Assembly (NCBI GenBank): GCA_965116025.1
Contig: OZ220480.1
Coordinates: 398,415 to 462,414, forward strand
Source: an uncultured candidatus Porisulfidus sp.
Lineage (GTDB): Bacteria > Pseudomonadota > Gammaproteobacteria > Poriferisulfidales > Poriferisulfidaceae
Direction of reading: 5' to 3'
Length of the DNA stretch: 64,000 bases
Shown here: positions 15,704 to 26,455 of the stretch, one piece after another
Layout: each line of letters begins with the position of its first letter
Position numbering within the stretch: position 1 is the stretch's first letter
Notes under the pieces: model-generated
What the model was told of the DNA's origin: nothing
Databases searched by the model: none
What the model saw: only the letters and a program-made list of their open reading frames with translations
Program-made: the position numbers and the translations under genes

Positions 15704-18700
15704 TCAGAAGCGAACCTTCAGCAGGACGCTCGCGCCGTAATCGTGATTGTCGCCGTCCGACGCCGCGTAGTGAGCGTCACCCGATAGCGTCGACTCCCCT
15801 TGCGCGTCCAAGACCATCACGCCCCCGCTGCCCAAACGCGCCCACGTGGACTCCACCTCCGAGCGCAGCCGCGACCCCGAAGCCATCACGTCCCGGCTCT
15901 CCGACAGCTCGCGCTCCACGTCCAATGAGGCGTACGTCTCGCCGTTCTCCAACAGTACCCCGATACGCGCCCGCGCGCTGTCCTCCGAGCGAAACGACAC
16001 CCGACCGCTTCCAGCAACGCCCGAAACGTCGGCGAAGTCGTCGACATCCACCCATGTCCACGTCAATCCTCCGCGCGGGATCAGCGCGAAGCCGTCCATC
16101 TCCATGCGCCTGCCGACCTCCACGCCGACCGCGTGACCCTCTCCGTCCAGACCGGACGCCACCATCCCCCGAGTCTCCGAGCTCAGGTCGACATCCTCGA
16201 AACGCGTGTACGAGAGCTCCCCGTCCGCGTACCAGCCGTCCTCCCCCCGCCAAGTCGCCGATGCCCCGACGCCCACGCCCGAGACCTCGATCTTCCCGCC
16301 CCGCGCGACGTCCGCCTCGCCGTCGCGGTAGTGCGCGCTCACGCCCAGCATCAGCCCCGGCGCGTCCGTAGGAACGACGATGCCCGTCTCCACGCCCCAG
16401 CGCTCGAAATCCCAAGACAGCGCGCGACCCGCATCGTCCATCTCGGTCGTGGATGTCTCCACCTCCCGCTCGCCGTCGCTCGCCAACACCCGCGCCCACG
16501 CGCCCCCGCCGTCCCGCGTCGCCGACAAACGCGCCTGACGACCGCCCGGCGCGCTCATCTCCAGCAGCACCGACGGCAGCGCCTCGTACACCCGAGCCCG
16601 GGCATGGTACGTCCGGCTGATCTCCTTCTCGGAGTCCACCTGGAACTGATGCCCGCCCGTGATCGACCTCAGCGTGACCATCCGCTCGAACACCGCGTCG
16701 TACACCCCATGCGTCCCCGTCTTCCCCGACGTCGCCTTCACCGCGTCCCCCACGGCGATCATCTTCTTCGCGCCGGCCATCAACTCCCGCTGGAAGACGT
16801 TCGGCGCGTCCTTTCCACTGTTCAGGAATTTCCCCATGACGAAAGCGATCTGCCCATGCTCGTTCTCCTTCAGGGTGACATGCAGCGCCTTGTCCGCGCT
16901 CACCGCGATCCCCGACGTCGCGCCGATCTCCGCCTTCGGCCCGATCATCAGCGTCCCGCCGTTCACCATCCGAACGCCGGCGTGCTCGCCGCCGCCGCCC
17001 ATCACCTTGCCGTTGATGGTGACCGTCTGGTCGTAGTGCCCCGCCCGGGTAGCGTGATCTTCCGCGAAGGTCCGCATGCCCTTGACATGCACCCCGTCCT
17101 TCTTGGCCCGGATCGTCGCCATCTCCCCTACCGTGACGCTGATCTTCCCGGCTTTCGGCGCGTCCTCGTCCTCGTAGGTGGTGGCCGTCTCCGCGTGCAC
17201 GCCATGCCCGTCCGCCATGATCGTTCCGCCAGCCACGTCGATCTTGATCGGGACGATCATCTCGATGTCCTGTACCCCCTCCGCGTCGTTCAAGTCTTTC
17301 ACATAGGCGAGAATGCCGTCGCCCTTCGACGTGACGCTCCCTTTCGACGTGATCTCGATCTTCCCGATCTTGGCCTCGTAGGTGGAGGGGGCTTGAGAGT
17401 CGACCGCCGTCTCGTCGGAAGCCGCCTGGGGCCGCGAACTCCCATGAACGGCGAGGATGCCGGCGGTCCTGCCTTTCAGGTCCGCCAATTCCATCTTTTC
17501 AGACTCCGTTATGGAATCCACGTCACTGTCCAAGATATCGAGCGCGTCGCCCGCGACGATCTCGCCCTTCAAGTGCTTCGCGACCACGTCGCCCCAGCCG
17601 CGATGCAGAGCGGCCACCCCCGAGCCCTTCGCGTGGATGAAGCCTTCGTTGGTGACCGTGATATCAGTCTCGTCAGTAGAATTGACCACATTAGTGAACA
17701 CGCCGTGTCCGCCAACCGGAGTCCCCGCGGTCCCGATCATCGCTCCCTCGGATACCGTCACCCGGATCGCTCCCCCGTAGATTTGCTGCTGGACGAGCAC
17801 GCCATGCCGACCCACGGTCGGCTCGTCTCCCTCCACGCCGATCCGCGCCCCGGACTTCAGCGTCACCTCAATGCCGCTGGGTTTCACGACGGCCGCCGGT
17901 TTGGTCGGTCGGAACCGATACGCATGGATGCCATCGCCACCTTCGCCAGCTGTGCCCGTCCGGGTGATCGCGCCCGCCAGATCCACCTTGACGAGACCCC
18001 CGTTATGCTCATGATGAATTTTGATCCCGTGGCCGTTCAATCCGCCCCCCATGAGGCTCCCTCCCGTCACGTTGATCGTGACCGGAACCACGGAATCGTC
18101 GTCCCCTTTCGTCGTGACTCGAATGCCTTCCGTCCACCAATAGGGCGCGACGCCCGGGTCCGTCACGACCTCGATGTCGCCGCTCGACGTGATCGAGACC
18201 TCGCTGCTGGCCTGCCCGTCCGCGGCCGGAGCGCTCTTGTCCTCGTGAAACACGTGAATCCCGGCGCGCGCGTACGCGCTTCGAGTTTCCACATGCCCGC
18301 TCTCCGTCGGATTCGCCATTTTCAGATAGCGGAGCGGATGGCTCTGAACCACGATCTTGCCCTCATGGACGATCGTGATGTCACCGCCGCCAGAAGACGA
18401 GCCCGGGGCTATCCAAACATCCCTAAGCCAGCGCTCTTCCAGACCCTCGTCCTGGAGATTCCCCGCCGACGCCCGGATCCCTTGCGAGGTCACGCTATTC
18501 TTCGCCGTCTTGATCACGGTGTCGCCCCCGCCCGAGCGATGCGCCAGTATCCCGGCATACGTCCCGTAAATCTCGCCCGCGTTCGTCACGCTGATGTCCG
18601 TGTCATGCTGAAAGTACGCTAGAACGCCGTACCCGCCCATCGGTTTGTCCTCGGTTCCGATCCGCGCCTCGTCTCCCACCATCACCTCGGCGCGGTCCTT

Positions 18701-19296
18701 CTGAGCGTCGGCGTCGCTTCCCAAGTGCTTCACGTAGACGCCGTGGTTGAGCCCCGCCCCGCGGTCCCTCGAATCAATGGCCTTCCCGATGCGCGTGACC
18801 GTCGTGGACAGCCCCGTCACGAGCCTCCGGGTCGCCCCGCTCTCAATGCGGACCCGCCCATCGAGAACGACTTTCTTCAGGGCGCCGGGCCCGCTCAGGA
18901 CGATCCCCGGCCGAGCGTCGCTCGCGCCACTGGGTATTCCACTGGACGTGATGGTGACCGTGCCCGCCCCGGAAGGCTGGACCGTCAGCGTCACGCTCCG
19001 GCCTGGCGCGGCGAGATCGTATCCGATCGGCGGGCCGTCGGCCTTGGTGTAGGTCGGGTCGTCGCAAGTGACTTCGGCGGCGCCCGAGCCGCTGGGAAGG
19101 TCGCCGCAGTTTCCCGTGTCCGCCGCCATGGCGGAGTGCGGAATCAGCGGAATGGAGAGAACGGCCGTCAATCCGGCCAGAACGGTCAGGAAACGGAGGC
19201 TATGCCCCCCCCCCCCCCCCCCCCCCCTACGCGGGAAGACGACGAGGCGACGCGAAACGCGGCGCGAATCTCGGAAACGGACAGGTTCTTGGTCAT
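15704..19296 (-). CDS. autotransporter (type Va) copy 2, paralogue of 1320..4834; reading frame interrupted at a poly-G tract in this assembly
   Basis: The ORF track gives 15704..19171 (TTG start inside the signal peptide, ...LTVLAGLTAVLSIPLIPHSAMA). Its C terminus ...LLKVRF is about 93% identical to copy 1 over roughly the last 600 aa. An ATG at 19296 opens the leader MTKNLSVSEIRAAFRVASSSSRV, followed by 23 G (19227..19205), and is 1 nt out of frame (ORF 19186..19371 in the track). Confidence 0.8.
19205..19227 (-). repeat. homopolymeric tract, 23 G on the coding strand, inside the 5' coding region of autotransporter 2
   Basis: Plus-strand C run 19205..19227. The count is consistent with the track ORF 19186..19371, which encodes ...RVGGGGGGGGIASVS*. 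24 or 21 G would restore the frame. Confidence 0.85.
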
Positions 19297-19446: not shown

Positions 19447-19522
19447 GGCCAGGTAGCTCAGTCGGTAGAGCAGGGGACTGAAAATCCCCGTGTCGGCGGT
19501 TCGATTCCGTCCCTGGCCACCA
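19447..19522 (+). tRNA. tRNA-Phe (GAA)
   Basis: A 76-nt cloverleaf GGCCAGGTAGCTCAGTCGGTAGAGCAGGGGACTGAAAATCCCC...TGGCCACCA, with anticodon loop CT-GAA-AA and an encoded CCA end. Confidence 0.95.
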
Positions 19523-19589: not shown

Positions 19590-20979
19590 TCAAAATTCTT
19601 GCGAGAAGCTGATCTCGAGATCGAATTGATAGATCTCGATCTCGATCATTTGCGAGGGATCGAACGGATTCGGGCCTCTTTGCCGCTCCGTCGGAGAGTA
19701 CATGAAGGCGGCGCTGATCTCCCGATCACCGGACAATTTTTTGGCCAGGCCGATGGTGTAGTGGTTCTCCACGACCGCCGGTGCCAAGATGTTCAGCAAC
19801 GTCTCGTCGCGCGGAATGGGGTGCTCGGCGAAGCTCGCGCCCACGCGAAGCGTCAGGTCCGGAGAGATCGCGTACCGCGCGCCGATCCTGTACACATTCA
19901 TATCCTCCCAGCCGAACCCCGCTCCATGGTCGCCCCCGAGGCGGCTTTCCGGTCGTCCCCGCCCAGCGTCGGACAGCGGAAGACGTTCGAGACCGGATTC
20001 GCCACCGAATCGATCTCGCCGTACCAGATTTTCTGGAAATCGAAGACCAAGACCAGACCGCTTGATGATTTCAGGGCGAAGCCAGCCGTCATCGAGGGTG
20101 GAATGTCGAAATCCCCGTCCTCGGCGAACAAACTCGCGTAGTCGTCGAGCTCGGTCATGAACATCCGCGACTGATACGCCAAGCCGATGTCCAGATACGA
20201 GACCGGGCTCCACAGCATTCCCACCCTCGCTCCGTAGCCGAACGAGAAATCCCGGCCCTTGTCGGTGAGACCGTCGGGCCACTTCTCTCCGTCGCTTCGC
20301 GCGACATCCTCGGTATACCCGGTGAACGCGGAAAGCCCCTTCCCTCGGAACGCCTGGACCGCCAGTACCGGGCTCACGCCCAGCGAAAGTCGCTCGCCGA
20401 CCTTCCGCGAGTAGATGATCACCAGGAACAGCTGGGTCAGATCCACGCCGGCGACGCCCCTCCATACGTCCCTGGAAAGCTCTGGACAGGCTTGGGCCCG
20501 GAGCCATCCGGGTCGAACGTGGCGATTCCCTCGTTCCACACCGTGTTCATCCCGCCATTCGCGTACAGGGTGATGCCCAGCGAGCTTCGCTCGTCCAACG
20601 GGTGGTTGTAGCCGACTGGGGGGACCGGAAAGCAGTCGCGGTCGCTGTCCATGTCGTTGGGCCCCACCGTGAAAGCGACGCCCGGGCCATTCGCCGCGCT
20701 CGCGCCCTTCTCGTAGGCCTGCCGGGGGCTGAAAATGGCCAAGCCCGCGTCGAGTCTTCGTCCTAGATGGACCATTCCCGCGGGATTCGTCGCCGCCGCG
20801 ATCGCGTCTTGCGGAAGCATCACCCCCGCGCCCGCCATACCCTTGCTTTTCGTCCCGTATCCGTGCGCGAAATAGCCATTCGTCGCCATCGCGCACGGCA
20901 CCGCCAGCGCGCAAGCCACGCACGCCCACAAGACGCCAGGCCAGATCCCGTCGCGCATGACGTTCCTCCGCGCGCGCAT
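19590..20979 (-). pseudogene. FadL/TodX-family outer-membrane transporter gene carrying two frameshifts
   Basis: Three consecutive minus-strand ORFs in three different frames (20437..21336, 19898..20929, 19590..20507) encode, in order, the N-terminal, middle and C-terminal parts. The N-terminal part has a signal peptide and the motif ATNGYFAHGYGTKSKGMAGAG. The C-terminal part ends ...LEISFSQEF. The frame switches fall near 20470-20500 and 19930-19960. Confidence 0.6.
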
Positions 20980-21057
20980 CCCGGACGTCTCGAGTCTACC
21001 GAACGCCCCCCGCGAGTCAATTCTCGCCTCTGGCGTCCGCGCGCGCTCGGCCGCGCC

Positions 21058-21078
21058 TAATTGCAGACATCCTGACCT
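21058..21078. repeat. left terminal inverted repeat of the IS
   Basis: CAGACATCCTGACCT at 21064-21078 is the reverse complement of 23445-23459. Confidence 0.65.
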
Positions 21079-21195
21079 GGTAGTCTGATATCGCGGGCGG
21101 GCGGCCCCTCGAACCGCCTTGATTTTCCTGTTTTCTCTGGCGTTCCGGGTCGGCGCGCGCTGGCGTTTTTCCCGGTCTCGTGATATAATATTATT

Positions 21196-23424
21196 ATGAC
21201 GCATAATGTAGGAGATCGCGTGTCCGGACTTCCCCTCAGCCCGACCGAGGCCACCCCCATCAGCGGCTCCCTCTCGTGGGCCGTCATCGACGACATCGTC
21301 TGGTACTTCTCCGGTCTCCAGCCGATCGACTTCCATCTCGCCGGAGACCGGAAATCCCGGTTGCTGCGGGTGGCGAAGCTACGCCTGGCCAACCGGGTGC
21401 CAGAGGGCGATCTGGCGCGCGCCTTCGACCTATCGCGCTCGACGGTCACGCGGGCGGCGCGGAAGCTTCGCGAGCGGGGCGAGGCGGCGTTCCGGGAGCC
21501 GACGCTTCGGCCCGGGGCCGGGCGGCGGCGCAGCGTGGTGACCCCGGAGAAGGCGCGCCGCGCCGAGCGCATGCTGGCCGAGGGGGAGACCCGCGGCGCG
21601 TGCGCGGCGGCCCTCGGCATCCCGATCAGCACGTTCTACGAGAACCTGCGCGCCGGGGTCATCCACAAGCCGGCGCCCGACCCGGGGGCGTCCGAGCGCT
21701 CCGAGCGCGCGGAGCGAGACCGTAAGCCGGCGCGCGGGCGCGCCTGCCACGACGACGAGCGCCGGCGGCTCGCCGCCGCCGGAACGCTGGCCGAGGCCGC
21801 GCCCCGCTTCGACCGCCCGGCCCGCTCGGTCGCCGGCGGCGGCGTCCTCGCCGCCCTTCCCGCCCTGCTCCGGGAAGGACTGCTGGAGCCCGCCCGCCGC
21901 ATGCTCCGCCTGCCCGACGGCTACTACGGACTGTCCGCCGTGCTGCTCACCTGCGCCTTCCTGACCCTCTCCCGCGCCCGCGCCCCCGAGGCCCTGCGCC
22001 ACCAGGCGCCCGGAGAGTGGGGCCTCCCGCTCGGACTCGACCGCTGCCCCGAGGTCAAGACCCTGCGCCGGAAGACGGCCCTGATCACCGATGCCGAGGA
22101 GACCGTCCACGCTTGGCAGAGCGCCCTGGCGCGCGCCTGGATGGAGGACGAGCGCGACGACTGGATGACCTTGGCCGTGGACGGCCACGTCAAGGTCTAC
22201 CACGGACGAAAGGGGCGCTTGCCCAAGGGCTTCGTCTCGCGCCAGAAGCTGTGTCTGCCGGCGTCCGCCAGCTACTGGGTCAACGTCCTTGGCGGCAAGC
22301 CCCTGCTGTGCCTGCATAAGAAGCTGGACCCGAAGCTGACGCGCGCCCTGGAGGAGGACGTCCTGCCCGAGCTGGAGCGGATGGGTCAGGTTCCCGCGTC
22401 CGCGCCAGACCTGCGCCAGGGCGGGCGCCCGATGGCCACCCTGGCGTTCGACCGCGAGGGCTGGAGCCCGCAGCTGTTCGCGCGCCTGGCGCGCCGTGGC
22501 GTCGCCTGCGTGACCTGGCGCAAGGGCTCCCGAGAGGACGACTGGCCGCGCGCCGAGTTCCACTCATGCGCGGTTCCGGTTCACGGCCCGGTCGGGAGAG
22601 GCGGCTCGCTGACCGTCTCGCTGGCCGAGCGCCGGGTCGAGCTGCGCGACGGCCTTCAGGTTCGGGAGATCCGCCGCCTGCTGGAGAGTGGGCGGCAGGC
22701 GGCGCTGATCACGACCCACCCGGACATGCCGACCGAGGAGGTCGCCGGCGCCATGTTCTCGCGCTGGTCGCAGGAGAACTTCTTCAAATACATGCGCGAG
22801 GAGTTCCGGCTCGACGCCTTGCCGGAGCATGCCGTGGAGCCGCTCGACCCGGAGACCCGGGTGGTCAATCCCGAGCGGCGGGAGGCGCGGAAAGAAGTCG
22901 AGCGGATCAAGCGGAGGCTTCAGTCCGTCGAGACGCGGGCTCGCCGGAAGCGCGCGAGGGGAACGGACGCGACCGGGCTTGAGGCCGAGGCGCGCGCGCT
23001 TCGGAAGCGTCTTGAGGAAGAGACGCTCCGCCGCGACGGGCTGCCTGCCCACGTGCGCGCCGGGGAGCTCCCGAAAGAGCGGCGGCTCGACGCCTTGCCG
23101 GTCGCCCGGCGCCTGTTCGCCGATCTCATCCGCATGATCTGCTACCGCGCCGAGACCCGCATGATGGCGGCCTCGGTCGCGGCGCCGGGGCGGAAGCCCT
23201 TGGCGCGCAAAGCGCTCGCCGCCCTGATGCGGGCCGACGCCCATCTCCGGCCCGACCCGGAGCGCGGCGTCCTTGAGGTTGAGCTGCTCGGCTTCGCCAA
23301 CGCCGCCGCCGAGCGAGCCCTCCGCCCGCTGCTCGACGAGCTCAATCGAACCGAAACCCGCTACCCCGGAACCGACCTCCAGCTCGTCTATCGCGTCGCC
23401 GGCGAGCCGCCCACCGAGGAATAG
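21196..23424 (+). CDS. DDE transposase (IS4-superfamily-like), 742 aa
   Basis: It has an N-terminal HTH (DLARAFDLSRSTVTRAARKL), candidate catalytic D residues in LAVDGHVKVY and LAFDREGW, and the signature FSRWSQENFFKY, which matches the Y(2)R(3)E...K motif of the IS4-type DDE_Tnp_1 family. It is flanked by inverted repeats. Confidence 0.6.
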   Translation: MTHNVGDRVSGLPLSPTEATPISGSLSWAVIDDIVWYFSGLQPIDFHLAGDRKSRLLRVAKLRLANRVPEGDLARAFDLSRSTVTRAARKLRERGEAAFREPTLRPGAGRRRSVVTPEKARRAERMLAEGETRGACAAALGIPISTFYENLRAGVIHKPAPDPGASERSERAERDRKPARGRACHDDERRRLAAAGTLAEAAPRFDRPARSVAGGGVLAALPALLREGLLEPARRMLRLPDGYYGLSAVLLTCAFLTLSRARAPEALRHQAPGEWGLPLGLDRCPEVKTLRRKTALITDAEETVHAWQSALARAWMEDERDDWMTLAVDGHVKVYHGRKGRLPKGFVSRQKLCLPASASYWVNVLGGKPLLCLHKKLDPKLTRALEEDVLPELERMGQVPASAPDLRQGGRPMATLAFDREGWSPQLFARLARRGVACVTWRKGSREDDWPRAEFHSCAVPVHGPVGRGGSLTVSLAERRVELRDGLQVREIRRLLESGRQAALITTHPDMPTEEVAGAMFSRWSQENFFKYMREEFRLDALPEHAVEPLDPETRVVNPERREARKEVERIKRRLQSVETRARRKRARGTDATGLEAEARALRKRLEEETLRRDGLPAHVRAGELPKERRLDALPVARRLFADLIRMICYRAETRMMAASVAAPGRKPLARKALAALMRADAHLRPDPERGVLEVELLGFANAAAERALRPLLDELNRTETRYPGTDLQLVYRVAGEPPTEE

Positions 23425-23442
23425 CGCGTCATCCTATAATCA

Positions 23443-23775
23443 TTAGGTCAGGATGTCTGAATTGTGGCGCCCGCGCGGGACGTACCGTCCGTCCTCGAAT
23501 CCGCTGAAGATCTGGTCGACCAGCGGATGCCGGATCGGGCGCGGGTCCTCCTCCCGCTCCAAGTTGCGCTCCGCGACGTACGTCTCGACCGGCCGCTCGT
23601 CCACCAGAACCCGATACCAGGGCCGGTCCCGGGGTGGGCGGGACCGCGCGTTGCGCTCGTACCACTCGTCGCTCCCCCGGAACGTCGGGTCCACGTCGAA
23701 GACCACGCCCCGATAGCCGAACAGTCGGTGCGCGACCAGTTGTCCCGGGGCGAATAGCGCCTGACTCTCGCGCAT
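23443..23775 (-). CDS. hspQ: heat-shock protein HspQ (YccV-like hemimethylated-DNA-binding domain); 3' end fused into the IS inverted repeat
   Basis: The product reads ...GQLVAHRLFGYRGVVFDVDP...WYRVLVDERPVETYVAE, typical of HspQ. The likely start is the internal Met at 23775. The final 22 nt lie inside the IS right inverted repeat. Confidence 0.7.
   Translation of the reverse strand: MRESQALFAPGQLVAHRLFGYRGVVFDVDPTFRGSDEWYERNARSRPPRDRPWYRVLVDERPVETYVAERNLEREEDPRPIRHPLVDQIFSGFEDGRYVPRGRHNSDILT
23445..23465. repeat. right terminal inverted repeat of the IS
   Basis: AGGTCAGGATGTCTG at 23445-23459. It overlaps the last 7 codons of hspQ. Confidence 0.65.
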
Positions 23776-23835
23776 CTCCCTCAGCCCTGCTCCCGCCACT
23801 TGCTATACTGGCGAAAATCGCTAGGCGCGACGCTT

Positions 23836-24105
23836 ATGGAACGCACCGTCGAACAACGAGTTTTGGTCATGACGCGCAAGATTTTGGCACAGATCGTGCG
23901 GGAAGTCACGCCGCCTCCCGGCATGAAGAGTCCCTTGTCCCCCCAGACCATTCAGGACATACGGAAAGCGTTCGAGCTGATCTCCGCGCGGGAGCGAGAG
24001 TTGATGGAGGCCGCCGGGAACCCAACCCAGGAGCGGCCCCGATACGCGGACGAGCCGAAAACCGCGGCGACCGCGCCGATGCCCAAGCGAAAGCTGGACT
24101 CATGA
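23836..24105 (+). CDS. hypothetical protein (about 89 aa), first gene of an overlapping three-gene operon
   Basis: Protein-like ORF (MERTVEQRVLVMTRKILAQIVREV...). Its stop overlaps the next start as ATGA at 24102-24105. The start could also be 23800. Confidence 0.4.
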   Translation: MERTVEQRVLVMTRKILAQIVREVTPPPGMKSPLSPQTIQDIRKAFELISARERELMEAAGNPTQERPRYADEPKTAATAPMPKRKLDS

Positions 24106-24500
24106 TCGCCACGTCGGAATCGCGGGAGCGGATGGCGCGCCAGGCCATGGCGGCGCTCGACCAATGGCGCCTCAACACGGACGAGATCGTGGCCATTCTG
24201 GCGTTGCCGGAGAAGACCCGCGGCGCGCAGCTGGAGCGCTTCCGCCACGGCGAGGCCCTGCCGAACGACCCGCCCCTGATGACGCGCGCGGAGCACATCG
24301 TCGGCATCGCCGACGCCCTGCGCACATCGTTTCCCCGCAACAGCCGCATCGGGGCCCGCTGGCTGGTCACCCCGCATCGGCGGTTCCGCAAGCGCACCCC
24401 TCTGTCGCTGATGATCGAGGATGGCGTCAACGGCCTGTGCCGGGTGCGAGCGGAGCTGGACTGCTCCTTCTCCTGGACGCGGTCGCAGGAGGCCCCCTGA
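24102..24500 (+). CDS. DUF2384 (MbcA/ParS/Xre-antitoxin C-terminal-domain-like) protein
   Basis: The C-terminal region ARWLVTPHRRFRKRTPLSLMIEDGVNGLCRVRAELD matches the WL.TPN.ALGG.TPLELL...G...V core of the RES-toxin-binding DUF2384 domain. 132 aa. Confidence 0.55.
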   Translation: MIATSESRERMARQAMAALDQWRLNTDEIVAILALPEKTRGAQLERFRHGEALPNDPPLMTRAEHIVGIADALRTSFPRNSRIGARWLVTPHRRFRKRTPLSLMIEDGVNGLCRVRAELDCSFSWTRSQEAP

Positions 24501-24910
24501 TGTCCGAGATCTCCATTCCGGTGGTCGCCGAGGGGGTCGAGATCACCTTGGAGAACAAGTGCGGCTTCTGCACCAACTCCCTGTGCTGCCACTACGTCAC
24601 CCAGGAGATCGACACGCCTCGGTCCAAATACGACTACGAGCACCTGCTCTGGCAGGTCTCGCACGACCGGGTCAGCGCCTACAAGGACTCCGACGGCTGG
24701 ACCCTGATGTTCGAGACCGCCTGCGCGCACCTGCGGGAGGACGGGCGTTGCGGGATTTACGAGGCCCGCCCGCAAATCTGCCGCGATCATCGCAACGATT
24801 TCTGCGAGTACGACCAGCCGGCCGAGGAGGGCTTCGACCTGTACTTCCCGGACTATGAGAGTCTCCTCGCGTACTGCAAGAAGCGCTTCAAGCGATGGGA
24901 GCGGGGCTAG
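24500..24910 (+). CDS. YkgJ/UPF0153-family cysteine-cluster (CxxCxxCC) protein
   Basis: It contains CGFCTNSLCCHY and later CGIYEARPQICRDH, as in YkgJ-type zinc/iron-chelating domain proteins. Its start overlaps the previous stop (TGATG). Confidence 0.55.
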   Translation: MSEISIPVVAEGVEITLENKCGFCTNSLCCHYVTQEIDTPRSKYDYEHLLWQVSHDRVSAYKDSDGWTLMFETACAHLREDGRCGIYEARPQICRDHRNDFCEYDQPAEEGFDLYFPDYESLLAYCKKRFKRWERG

Positions 24911-25559
24911 GCGGCATGATCTCCGAGAAGTCCCGGATCGCGGGATACGGCAGGCTCCTCCGCTCCGGCTGGCCGCTGTCCGGACGCCGGACCGTGAGCA
25001 GGCAGCCGATGCCCGCCCTTCTCGCGTGCGCCAGAACGTCGACGTCGTCGTCCACCATGAGCGTGCGGGCCGGCTCGTGCGGCACCGCGTCCCGCAACGC
25101 CTTCCAGAATCCCGCGCTTTCCTTAGGCGTCTGGAACTCGTGGGAGCTGATGACCTTCCGGAAATAGGGACGGATCTGGGATTCCTCCAGCTTGATGTCG
25201 ACGAACTTCGGGTGCGAGTTGGTGACGAGGTAACAGGGCCTGCGACTGTCGTTGATCCGTCCCAGAAACTCCTCGATACGGGGCATCCGCGTCACCCGAT
25301 GGCGGATTTCCCGCTTCAGCGCGACCACGTCCAGACCCAGCTCCTCGCTCCAGTAGTCGGCGCAATACCACTGCAACGTGCCCCGGATCTCGCGGTAGCG
25401 CGCGGTCAGATTCGCCCGGGCTTCCGCAACGTCCATCCCGTACGCCTCGGCGAAGCGCCGCGGCAGATGGTGAAACCAGAAGTGGGAATCGAACCGCAGG
25501 TCCAGCAACGTCCCGTCCATGTCCAGAAAGACGGTGTCGATGGCCTCCCAGTCGATCAT
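24888..25559 (-). CDS. yrfG: HAD-family GMP/IMP nucleotidase (YrfG-like)
   Basis: It reads MIDWEAIDTVFLDMDGTLLDLRFD...LQWYCADYWSEELGLDV and is strongly similar in order and motifs to E. coli YrfG. The start is taken at the internal Met (25559). Confidence 0.75.
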   Translation of the reverse strand: MIDWEAIDTVFLDMDGTLLDLRFDSHFWFHHLPRRFAEAYGMDVAEARANLTARYREIRGTLQWYCADYWSEELGLDVVALKREIRHRVTRMPRIEEFLGRINDSRRPCYLVTNSHPKFVDIKLEESQIRPYFRKVISSHEFQTPKESAGFWKALRDAVPHEPARTLMVDDDVDVLAHARRAGIGCLLTVRRPDSGQPERRSLPYPAIRDFSEIMPPSPAPIA

Positions 25560-25633
25560 GCGTAATGGCGCTCCGCGCCGGATTCTACACTCCCTTCCGC
25601 CGCGATTTGCTACGATGGGCGCGAACTCGACCA

Positions 25634-26455
25634 ATGGATTCCGAACAGCTCTCCCGACTTCTGCCCGAGGCCAAGCGAATCGCCAAGGAGGCCGGCGCGC
25701 GCGTCCTAGCCACCCTCCGCGCGGGCTACGAGATCTTCGAGAAGGCCGATCGCTCTCCGGTCACCACGGTCGACCTGGAGGCCCACCGGCGCATCGTCGA
25801 GCGGTTGCGGGCGCTGAACGAGCGGTGGCCGGTTCTGTCCGAAGAGGCTTCCGTCCTTCCCGCCTGGAAAGTCCGCCGGGACTGGGAGACGTACTGGCTG
25901 GTCGACCCTCTGGACGGCACCCGCGAGCTGTTTCGGCGAAGCGGGGAATTCACCGTCAACATCGCCCTGATTCACCGTCGACGATCCGTGCTAGGGGTCG
26001 TCGGCGCCCCGGCTCTGGACCTCCTCTATCACGCGCGTCGCGGTGGCGGCGCCTGGCGGTCGCGGGCGGAAGAACCCCCGGTCGCCATCCGCGCCCGGCC
26101 CTTCCCCACCGATGGATCCGCCATCGTGGCGGCGAGCTTCCGTCACGCGCGCCCCGAAACTCAGCGGCTCCTCACGCGGCTGGGCCCGCACCGGGAGAGG
26201 CGCGTCGGGAGCTCGCTGAAGAGCTGTCAGGTCGCGGAAGGCTCCTTGGACCTGTATCCGCGCCACGGCCCCACTCACGAATGGGACACGGCGGCGGCCC
26301 AATGCGTCGTGGAGGAGGCGGGAGGCCAGGCGCTCGACTGGCGGCTGCGCCCGCTTCGCTACAACGCGGGACCGAGCTTGGTCAACCCCAGTTTTCTGGT
26401 GATCGGCGACCCCGGCCACGACTGGGCCTCCCTGCTGGATCCGGCGCCGCGATGA
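25634..26455 (+). CDS. cysQ: 3'(2'),5'-bisphosphate nucleotidase
   Basis: It has WLVDPLDGTRELF and the inositol-monophosphatase-fold motifs. The start is at the internal Met 25634 (the ORF track begins at 25565). Confidence 0.8.
   Translation: MDSEQLSRLLPEAKRIAKEAGARVLATLRAGYEIFEKADRSPVTTVDLEAHRRIVERLRALNERWPVLSEEASVLPAWKVRRDWETYWLVDPLDGTRELFRRSGEFTVNIALIHRRRSVLGVVGAPALDLLYHARRGGGAWRSRAEEPPVAIRARPFPTDGSAIVAASFRHARPETQRLLTRLGPHRERRVGSSLKSCQVAEGSLDLYPRHGPTHEWDTAAAQCVVEEAGGQALDWRLRPLRYNAGPSLVNPSFLVIGDPGHDWASLLDPAPR

Follow-up and report, generated by a model that had tools for sequence, protein, structure and literature searches.

The window analysed here, a stretch of 64,000 nucleotides, carries a long open reading frame (ORF) bounded by inverted repeats (IRs) between a FadL-like gene and hspQ. 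We asked what kind of element this is, where its ends lie and what its arrival did to hspQ. We hold with high confidence that positions 21064-23459 of the window are one intact, 2.4-kb, single-gene bacterial insertion sequence (IS), which encodes a DDE transposase of the PF21804 family and is inserted on the hspQ stop codon. Its ends, the target-site duplication (TSD) that adjoins them and a promoter-like site within it are as follows.

21059-21063, no strand: left TSD copy, AATTG, read directly and identical to 23460-23464
21064-21078, plus strand: left IR (IRL), CAGACATCCTGACCT, perfect over 15 bp
21180-21207, plus strand: putative promoter-like site GTGATA-16-CATAAT (consensus scan), 5' of the transposase gene and within the IS
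23445-23459, minus strand: right IR (IRR), exact reverse complement of IRL
23460-23464, no strand: right TSD copy, AATTG, read directly and identical to 21059-21063

The IS spans 2396 bp and has one transposase gene; the other ORFs listed inside the element do no more than overlap this gene. Its termini, CAGACATCCTGACCT and the exact reverse complement of this sequence, are perfect 15-bp IRs, as the initial annotation had reported for these 15 nucleotides, and nowhere else in the 64-kb window is there an exact 15-nt inverted pair at a spacing of 1.5-3.5 kb. An exact direct repeat, AATTG, adjoins both IRs. The generic features of a bacterial IS were all found, namely IRs at both ends, a short flanking TSD, transposition functions as the sole coding content, and several copies at different sites. 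We rejected a composite transposon or passenger genes, because the element has a single gene and the window no other copies of the IR. We likewise rejected a genomic island targeted to a tRNA, as the nearest tRNA (Phe, 19447-19522) is 1.5 kb off, beyond the FadL-like gene. No outward-facing promoter was found in the IS ends by a promoter consensus scan.

The initial annotation had drawn the ends differently. It proposed imperfect IRs of about 20 bp that took in AATT across a 1-nt indel, an element spanning 21058-23465, and an hspQ gene whose last seven codons came from the IS and whose native 3' end had been replaced. An ungapped inverted match can indeed be extended to 26 nt with 85% complementarity (21053-21078 / 23445-23470). 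However, this extension is made up of the AATTG direct repeat, which is the TSD rather than part of the IRs, and a small target palindrome (GCGCC...GGCGC). In addition, the sequence outside CAGAC/GTCTG varies by copy and is directly duplicated in 77 other copies, and hspQ homologues end in ...HN exactly at the TSD position. We consider the longer, imperfect ends extremely improbable and delimit the element by its 15-bp IRs.

These 77 copies were examined along with other relatives of the element. In a scan of a genome collection with one genome per species, at least 551 stretches encode a relative, with no more than 61% identity among the matches listed. Of the best 80 of these at least 551 loci, at least 31 are from a single marine Rhodobacterales metagenome-assembled genome (MAG) and 11 are from a single Arenicellales MAG. 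The initial annotation had staked its reading on the recurrence of the IRs at other copies, and they do recur: the termini CAGAC...GTCTG are common to 77 distinct related insertions from other genomes. The family IR consensus is CAGAC(A/T/G)TCCTGACCTC and most relatives have perfect IRs of 13-18 bp. Of these 77 insertions, 62 are flanked by exact 5-bp TSDs that occupy a constant position next to CAGAC/GTCTG, and the target consensus across related insertions is the palindrome C-Y-A-R-N-Y-T-R-G. The exact TSD is missing at the other 15; several of these have flanks exchanged between copies, which is compatible with recombination between IS copies.

The composition of the TSD bears on whether the duplication is 5 bp in length. 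Position 1 is A in 60 of the 62 insertions with exact TSDs and position 5 is T in the same proportion (60/62). There is a T to the left of CAGAC and an A to the right of GTCTG in 60 of the 62 exact cases, as would be the case if the true ends were T-CAGAC...GTCTG-A, with 16-bp IRs and a 3-bp duplication within an A-NNN-T target. For those copies the 3-bp and the 5-bp models are indistinguishable. The four departures from A...T, namely AATTG in the window, GAGAT at locus L056, GATTT at L060 and AAATC at L069, are informative, and each is identical on both sides. All four thus show the same non-A or non-T base at both flanks, which favours a 5-bp TSD over a 3-bp TSD plus one extra IR base, since the 3-bp model needs two independent coincidences per informative insertion whereas a 5-bp duplication expects this pattern. 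The 16-bp ends are therefore very unlikely, and we take the TSD to be 5 bp.

The right TSD copy falls at the end of hspQ.

23443-23775, minus strand: hspQ (yccV family), 110 aa from the ATG at 23775, of which residues 1-105 are native

As first described, hspQ is convergent with the transposase gene and terminates inside the right IR. Its product matches the HspQ model TIGR02097 (E=1.4e-28, 99.1 bits against a cut-off of 38) and also Pfam YccV-like. The right end of the IS supplies the residues S-D-I-L-T and a TAA stop codon (23443-23460), the first base of the Ser codon being TSD base 23460. The TAA sits on the inner border of the right IR and shares its last base with it, as the innermost IR base. 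The IS contribution is five codons and the stop rather than the seven codons and stop counted before, as R-H-N is native. Comparison with relatives further argues against the replacement of the 3' end: all 13 HspQ homologues end in ...HN with an invariant N105, and 12 of them have a length of exactly 105 aa. The native residues 1-105 align with these homologues over their full length, and the SDILT tail is unique to the window copy.

Reconstruction of the empty site gives a predicted junction of ...GCCGCGCCTAATTGTGGCGCCCGC... and restores a 105-aa hspQ ORF that ends CAC AAT TAG, compared with CAC AAC TAG and CAT AAC TAG in two relatives. On this reconstruction, the IS appears to have entered at the native TAG stop and split it, with no apparent loss of native coding sequence. 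HspQ retains its 105 native residues and carries the SDILT tail because the AATTG target overlaps both the last codon and the TAG. The gene would be better annotated as intact with a five-residue, IS-derived tail than as truncated. This C-terminal extension could alter HspQ function; Salmonella HspQ with a C-terminal Flag tag has served in pull-down assays (PMC6719616).

The features of the transposase gene and its product are listed below, with residues in the numbering of the 742-aa ORF.

21209-21213, plus strand: Shine-Dalgarno-like AGGAG, 6 nt 5' of the GTG at 21220
21220-23424, plus strand: transposase gene, 734 aa from the probable GTG start; the longest ORF (21196-23424, 742 aa) begins at the ATG at 21196
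Residues 1-40: predicted beta strands
Residues ~57-100 and 111-152: helix-turn-helix (HTH) motifs
Residues 183-734: PF21804 core
22180-82, plus strand: candidate catalytic D329
22450-52, plus strand: candidate catalytic D419
22774-76, plus strand: candidate catalytic E527

Translation probably starts at GTG 21220, which would give a protein of 734 rather than 742 aa. This is where most transposase homologues begin and where the gene call in the protein collection starts (P0122, 734 aa). The 742-aa ORF of the initial annotation is present, but the length it regarded as unusual is ordinary in a family whose members have ~720-830 aa. The FSRWSQENFFKY signature and the N-terminal HTH matches it had recognized are both found in this ORF. 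The protein matches Pfam PF21804 (Transposase_29), a family described as 'Transposase protein', from end to end (profile positions 3-560 of 562), with E=2e-100 and 337.1 bits against a 27-bit cut-off. The family numbers 3560 clusters (50% identity) when the limit is E<=1e-3 and 464 when it is E<=1e-30, and the close homologues of the window transposase all have the PF21804 domain along with N-terminal HTHs. A search of PHROGs returned nothing useful. Since a search of PDB sequences with the family profile yielded only HTH and coiled-coil noise, a fold comparison was needed. The predicted fold has a Tn5-like RNase-H catalytic core with a beta-rich insertion domain, such that both the acidic triad and the insertion domain of Tn5-type DDE transposases are seen in the model. 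On the C-terminal side of E527 there are a coiled coil and an alpha/beta domain. Across sequences down to ~30% identity, neither D329 nor D419 varies, and conservation of E527 is 90% or more. The PF21804 match and the predicted fold agree with the original proposal of an IS that has IRs at its ends and encodes a DDE transposase, and they identify the protein as a transposase and not a regulator.

A related possibility is that the ORF encodes a domesticated or inactive, transposase-derived regulator in a fossil element that is no longer mobile. The protein has several N-terminal HTH motifs, and one intact copy is seen in the window, the other copy in this genome being decayed. This second copy, known from its encoded protein fragments alone, is on the same 2.02-Mb contig and encodes two fragments, of 452 aa (97% identical) and 137 aa (96% identical). 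The window element, on the other hand, combines perfect IRs and an exact TSD with an uninterrupted ORF that has the conserved D, D and E, all of which point to a recent insertion. Moreover, a genome with close family members can contain dozens of identical copies, and every copy has a TSD of its own, which is the behaviour of a mobile element and not of a host gene. A fossil regulator is highly improbable in light of these observations, and an IS that may still be active is the reading we prefer.

By analogy with Tn5, we propose the following mechanism of transposition. The HTH region would bind the 15-bp terminal IRs, and a transposase multimer would bring the two IS ends together. The putative D329/D419/E527 site would then cut the IS out in a cut-and-paste reaction, possibly via hairpins as in Tn5. 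The freed 3'-OH ends would attack the target 5 bp apart, preferably at the palindrome C-Y-A-R-N-Y-T-R-G, and gap repair would lead to the 5-bp duplication. In this genome, the insertion would have occurred at the AATTG that overlapped the last codon and TAG stop of hspQ. Both the activity in transposition and the hairpins are inferred from a likeness of folds between proteins that share only ~11% sequence identity.

Points of likeness to Tn5/IS50 and IS4 (PMC2266710) are the single unframeshifted DDE transposase gene, the 5'-CA termini, a D-90-D-108-E spacing in which a beta-rich insertion lies after the second D and before the E, and an R-(3)-E-(6)-R motif that includes the catalytic E. Of 45 family members, 16 also match the NCBIfam IS4 model weakly, with E=8.9e-8 at best. 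The earlier designation 'IS4-like' is correct at the level of superfamily or fold only, whereas the tests for the IS4 family itself (the Y of YREK, TSD length and model scores) failed. Unlike IS4 proper, the window protein lacks the Y of the Y-(2)-R-(3)-E-(6)-K signature (PMC2266710): in M520-F-S-R523-W-S-Q-E527-N-F-F-K-Y-M-R534, the R, the E and a basic residue at +7 are present and the Y is absent (M520/F521). The TSDs of IS4 proper are 8-13 bp (PMC2266710, Table 1), compared with 5 bp in the window and 62 relatives. The window protein scores 18.2 bits with the NCBIfam IS4 model NF033592, below its 115-bit cut-off, and has no match to Pfam DDE_Tnp_1 (PF01609) at E<=0.1. Sizes differ as well, as IS4 subgroups are mostly ~1.2-1.65 kb and the matched Tn5 transposase chains ~455-460 aa, in contrast to 2.4 kb and ~734 aa here. 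The window protein further differs from Tn5/IS4 in its additional N-terminal region, with beta strands and a double HTH, and in the long coiled coil on its C-terminal side.

ISH3 and IS1634 are 'emerging' families related to IS4 (PMC2266710), and each shares some properties with the window element. The A-R-N-Y-T of the window family fits the direct-repeat pattern of ISH3 (PMC2266710). The ISH3 ends are CRGT (PMC2266710) and the window end, CAGA, also begins CRG and matches at three of four positions. The R-(3)-E-(3)-basic arrangement of ISH3 is seen in R523, E527 and K531. ISH3 elements, however, are 1225-1500 bp and reported only from archaea (PMC2266710), compared with 2396 bp here, and their transposases keep the Y of Y-(2)-R (PMC2266710) that is missing from the window protein. 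The NCBIfam ISH3 model had no match to this protein (E<=0.1), nor did it appear in a list of the 25 families that the 45 family members matched most often. As for IS1634, the likeness lies in a large transposase, AT-rich target duplications of 5-6 bp and ends that start with C (PMC2266710). The length of its transposase is due to a long N3-C1 spacer (PMC2266710), whereas the D419-E527 spacer of the window protein is not enlarged (108 residues) and the additional residues are found towards the N and C termini. IS1634 transposases mostly lack the YREK arginine (PMC2266710), which the window protein has. The NCBIfam IS1634 model (NF033559) had no match to the window protein and weak ones in 3 of 45 family members.

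The window element is an ordinary intact IS of a poorly described, Tn5-related family. Our literature search found no description of the PF21804 family, its accession appearing nowhere but in a single list of transposase Pfam accessions, and a search with the IR sequences gave unrelated papers only. PF21804 is also without a named IS family in the NCBIfam models behind NCBI genome annotation. For PF21804 elements, this analysis is the source of the IRs, 5-bp TSD, target consensus and copy numbers reported above. At somewhat less than even confidence, we suggest that these elements are an IS family of their own, not formally described, and an 'emerging family' lineage of the IS4/Tn5 superfamily. 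It would be marked by an incomplete YREK, a 5-bp TSD, a palindromic CYARNYTRG target, CAGAC(N)TCCTGACC termini, and a 720-830-aa transposase with N-terminal beta and double-HTH regions and a C-terminal coiled coil. Its large bursts, of dozens of identical copies, would be in marine MAGs (Rhodobacterales, Arenicellales, Spirochaetia and other Alphaproteobacteria), and the window copy would be one intact member. The findings matter mostly for annotation, since they establish the true ends of the IS, its TSD and the target it prefers, and they are of modest interest for classifying ISs; with the IR and TSD rules, hundreds of copies in IS-rich MAGs could be delimited automatically. No match at E<=1e-5 came out of a tblastn search of 72,556 plasmids. 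At E<=10 there were only weak matches to IS4-family transposases and to one Streptomyces plasmid protein labelled 'putative transposase' at NCBI, which is a distant member of the PF21804 family (hhalign probability 100%).

The insertion also changed the surroundings of the gene on the far side of the left IR.

19590-20959, minus strand: FadL/Toluene_X-like outer-membrane transporter gene, broken up across three reading frames by two apparent frameshifts (ORF list)
20993-21020, minus strand: putative promoter-like site TTGACT-16-TAGACT (consensus match), between the IS and the FadL-like gene and outside the IS

The matches of this gene to Pfam Toluene_X, at profile positions 149-236 and 312-382, fall in separate frames. 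The gene is on the same strand as hspQ and downstream of it, now 104 bp beyond IRL, and the IS insertion has placed 2.4 kb between these two co-directional genes. The initial annotation had stated that the FadL-like gene was separated from its upstream region. This holds for hspQ read-through, from which the gene is severed, but its nearest promoter-like site (21020-20993) is retained.

The window carries a genuine, intact insertion sequence (IS) at 21064-23459 (2396 bp), and the insertion is probably recent. The initial annotation was right in this main call. The inverted-repeat arms, CAGACATCCTGACCT at 21064-21078 (left, IRL) and its exact reverse complement at 23445-23459 (right, IRR), are the sole exact 15-nt inverted pair spaced 1.5-3.5 kb in the whole 64-kb window. 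AATTG lies directly outside both arms in direct orientation (21059-21063 and 23460-23464). The AATT shared by the two ends had been taken for an imperfect extension of the inverted repeats across a 1-nt indel, and is better read as belonging to a 5-bp target-site duplication (TSD). A repeat finder extends the ungapped inverted match at the ends to 26 nt (85%), an effect of the target having been a small palindrome in its own right, GCGCC-TAATTGT-GGCGC. The G+C content is 71.6% in the IS and 63.0% elsewhere in the window, consistent with acquisition of the IS from a donor of higher GC. The element and the gene that it struck comprise:

21196-23424, plus strand, transposase ORF of 742 aa, the one real gene between the IS arms
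23443-23775, minus strand, hspQ (TIGR02097, E=1.4e-28; Pfam YccV-like)

The effect of the insertion on hspQ was examined by comparison with homologues. The best match of the window HspQ in the protein collection was its own entry, P0143 (110 aa), on the same contig as the window transposase's own entry, P0122; the homologues ranked next share 73-80% identity and are, without exception, 105 aa long. Every aligned homologue has the C-terminus ...HN, with N105 invariant. In the window the frame reads on as CAC AAT T|CA GAC ATC CTG ACC TAA, and taking out the IS with one TSD copy in silico gives CAC AAT TAG and a 105-aa HspQ. The homologue ends together with this restored site indicate that the IS went into the hspQ stop codon. 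The gene ends in CAC AAC TAG and CAT AAC TAG in two relatives compared at the DNA level. Thus hspQ lost none of its coding sequence and was extended by SDILT (five residues) before a new stop. The initial annotation had the native 3' end replaced and the last seven codons supplied by the IS; the IS supplied five and the stop, R-H-N being native. [quoted passage not shown] Beyond hspQ as seen from the IS, 23800-26455 is syntenic with a relative (L084, HspQ 73% identical), the block encoding a small protein, an Xre_MbcA_ParS_C-like protein, a CxxCxxCC protein, a HAD hydrolase and an inositol monophosphatase. Towards the IS, synteny with L084 is absent.

One genome per species was scanned for related transposases, and at least 551 encoding stretches were found. 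At least 31 of the best 80 are in a single Rhodobacterales metagenome-assembled genome (MAG) and 11 in an Arenicellales MAG, with others of these 80 in Spirochaetia, Paracoccaceae, Thalassobaculaceae and further Alphaproteobacteria MAGs. The same termini, with the consensus CAGAC(A/T/G)TCCTGACCTC, occur in 77 distinct insertions of 2.35-2.9 kb, most variants having perfect inverted repeats of 13-18 bp. An exact 5-bp direct repeat adjoins CAGAC/GTCTG in 62 of the 77, and none reaches 6 bp. In the 62 exact cases the duplicated pentamer is A (60/62)-R-N-Y-T (60/62), and the target consensus including flanks is the palindrome C-Y-A-R-N-Y-T-R-G. Since TSD positions 1 and 5 are almost always A and T, the inverted repeats might instead be one base longer and the duplication only 3 bp. 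However, the four insertions without A...T (AATTG in the window, GAGAT at L056, GATTT at L060 and AAATC at L069) show the identical departure on both sides, as a 5-bp duplication predicts and contrary to the prediction of a 3-bp one. The 15 insertions with an imperfect 5-bp TSD include copies with left and right flanks common to other copies (e.g. L033, L034, L070), which fits recombination between IS copies in IS-rich genomes. At L033, L034, L070, L042, L046 and L047 (Rhodobacterales and Alphaproteobacteria MAGs), some copies without matching TSDs have one flank in common with another copy, and L034 and L070 have the identical left flank AGGGGAAATT; such one-flank sharing suggests inversions or deletions via recombination between IS copies. 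Extra end sequences adjoin full copies at L047 (5408, 5865), L011 (5245, 5427) and L074 (2804/2856; 5350/5577), and point to partial copies, nested or in tandem, or to solo inverted repeats of the same IS family. At L001 (1-1587) the closest relative of the window IS (transposase 65% identical) has two further IS4-type transposase genes (DDE_Tnp_1, Nterm_IS4) beside it, in an IS-rich neighbourhood.

The transposase likely starts at GTG 21220 and not at ATG 21196. AGGAG lies 6 nt upstream of this GTG, most aligned homologues begin at its position, and the gene call P0122 (734 aa) is identical to the window protein from there on. In the large protein collection 927 homologues were scored at E<=1e-5; the 120 listed, most of them 720-830 aa long, all have PF21804 and nearly all have N-terminal HTH domains too. 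The 742 aa (or rather 734) first described as unusually long are therefore normal within the family. The P0122 contig (2,018,984 bp) also encodes transposase fragments of 452 aa (97% identical, residues 186-625 in the 742-aa numbering used here unless stated) and 137 aa (96%, residues 617-741), the remains of a second copy that has decayed. Within the transposase gene of the window, the 19-bp sequence CGGCTCGACGCCTTGCCGG recurs exactly and in direct orientation, at 22807-22825 and 23083-23101; both copies encode RLDALP, one on either side of a predicted coiled coil.

Residues 183-734 match Pfam PF21804 (Transposase_29; E=2e-100) over the full model, preceded by HTH_28/HTH_23 (residues ~57-100) and HTH_7 (~111-148). 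In a homologue alignment down to ~30% identity, conservation is complete at D329 (AVDGH) and D419 (FDREGWS) and at least 90% at E527 (SRWSQENFFKY). The AlphaFold2 model built from this alignment is a confident prediction (pLDDT 90.9, pTM 0.80), and the top solved structures in Foldseek were Tn5 transposase (4dm0, 3ecp, 1muh; E=4e-8 to 9e-8), then piggyBac. D329 is predicted within a beta strand (317-326) and D419 directly after another (406-410), followed by a beta-rich insertion (448-498; all three ranges in 734-aa numbering) and a helical region holding E527; as modelled, this layout is the Tn5 arrangement. The family numbers 3560 clusters (50% identity) at E<=1e-3 and 464 at E<=1e-30. No member was found at E<=1e-5 among 72,556 plasmids; the single distant member on a plasmid comes from Streptomyces and carries the bare annotation 'putative transposase'.

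The element is thus a PF21804 member and belongs to the Tn5/IS4 superfamily by fold, so that the original label 'IS4-like' holds at that level but not for IS4 proper. None of the NCBIfam IS-family models matched the window transposase at cut-off; the top one, IS4_1, scored 18 against a cut-off of 115 bits, over residues 478-545 surrounding the catalytic glutamate. Across 45 diverse family members IS4_1 was the commonest core-region model (16/45, best E=8.9e-8) and IS1634 matched three, while no ISH3 model featured in the list of 25 families. Matches to IS630 and IS481 among these members most likely arise from the HTH region, as does the IS630 match of the window protein (residues 55-123). By published criteria, a complete Y-(2)-R-(3)-E-(6)-K signature goes with direct repeats of ~10 bp in the IS4 family, and an incomplete one with direct repeats of ~5 bp in the related families IS701, ISH3 and IS1634 (De Palmenaer et al. 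2008, PMC2266710). The window transposase has R523-(3)-E527-(6)-R534 and lacks the tyrosine, which together with the 5-bp TSD groups the element with the incomplete-signature type. A large transposase and an AT-rich target of 5 bp recall IS1634, but the element matches neither the IS1634 nor the ISH3 model, and the added length of its transposase sits at the N and C termini and not in the D-E spacer as in IS1634. Membership in any named IS family is not demonstrable, as judged by NCBIfam models and the PMC2266710 criteria. The biology of the window insertion is ordinary and its stop-codon hit tidy; the IS family has expanded greatly in marine MAGs and yet seems under-described.

The region on the other side of the IS contains:

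19590-20959, minus strand, FadL/Toluene_X-like outer-membrane transporter gene, downstream of hspQ on the same strand
20437-20959, 19898-~20500 and 19590-~20120, minus strand, fragments of this gene as three overlapping ORFs in different frames
21020-20993, minus strand, promoter-like site TTGACT-16-TAGACT, between the IS and the FadL-like gene

The FadL-like gene starts at 20959, 104 bp from IRL. The insertion thus cut off possible read-through from hspQ and spared the nearest promoter-like site. Toluene_X matches were found in two of the three frames, and the three-frame arrangement implies two frameshifts; either the gene has decayed to a pseudogene or the assembly is in error here. A different gene lies downstream of hspQ in two relatives, so the adjacency of hspQ and the FadL-like gene is not conserved. 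A tRNA-Phe gene (19447-19522, plus strand) is located just 3' of the FadL-like gene, and four tRNA genes (Lys, His, Arg, Pro; 29406-29764, minus strand) form a cluster 6 kb rightward of the IS. Further to the left, 15704-19171 (minus strand) holds an ORF of 1155 aa rich in Gly/Ser/Thr/Val repeats, the C-terminal region of which resembles an autotransporter beta-barrel.
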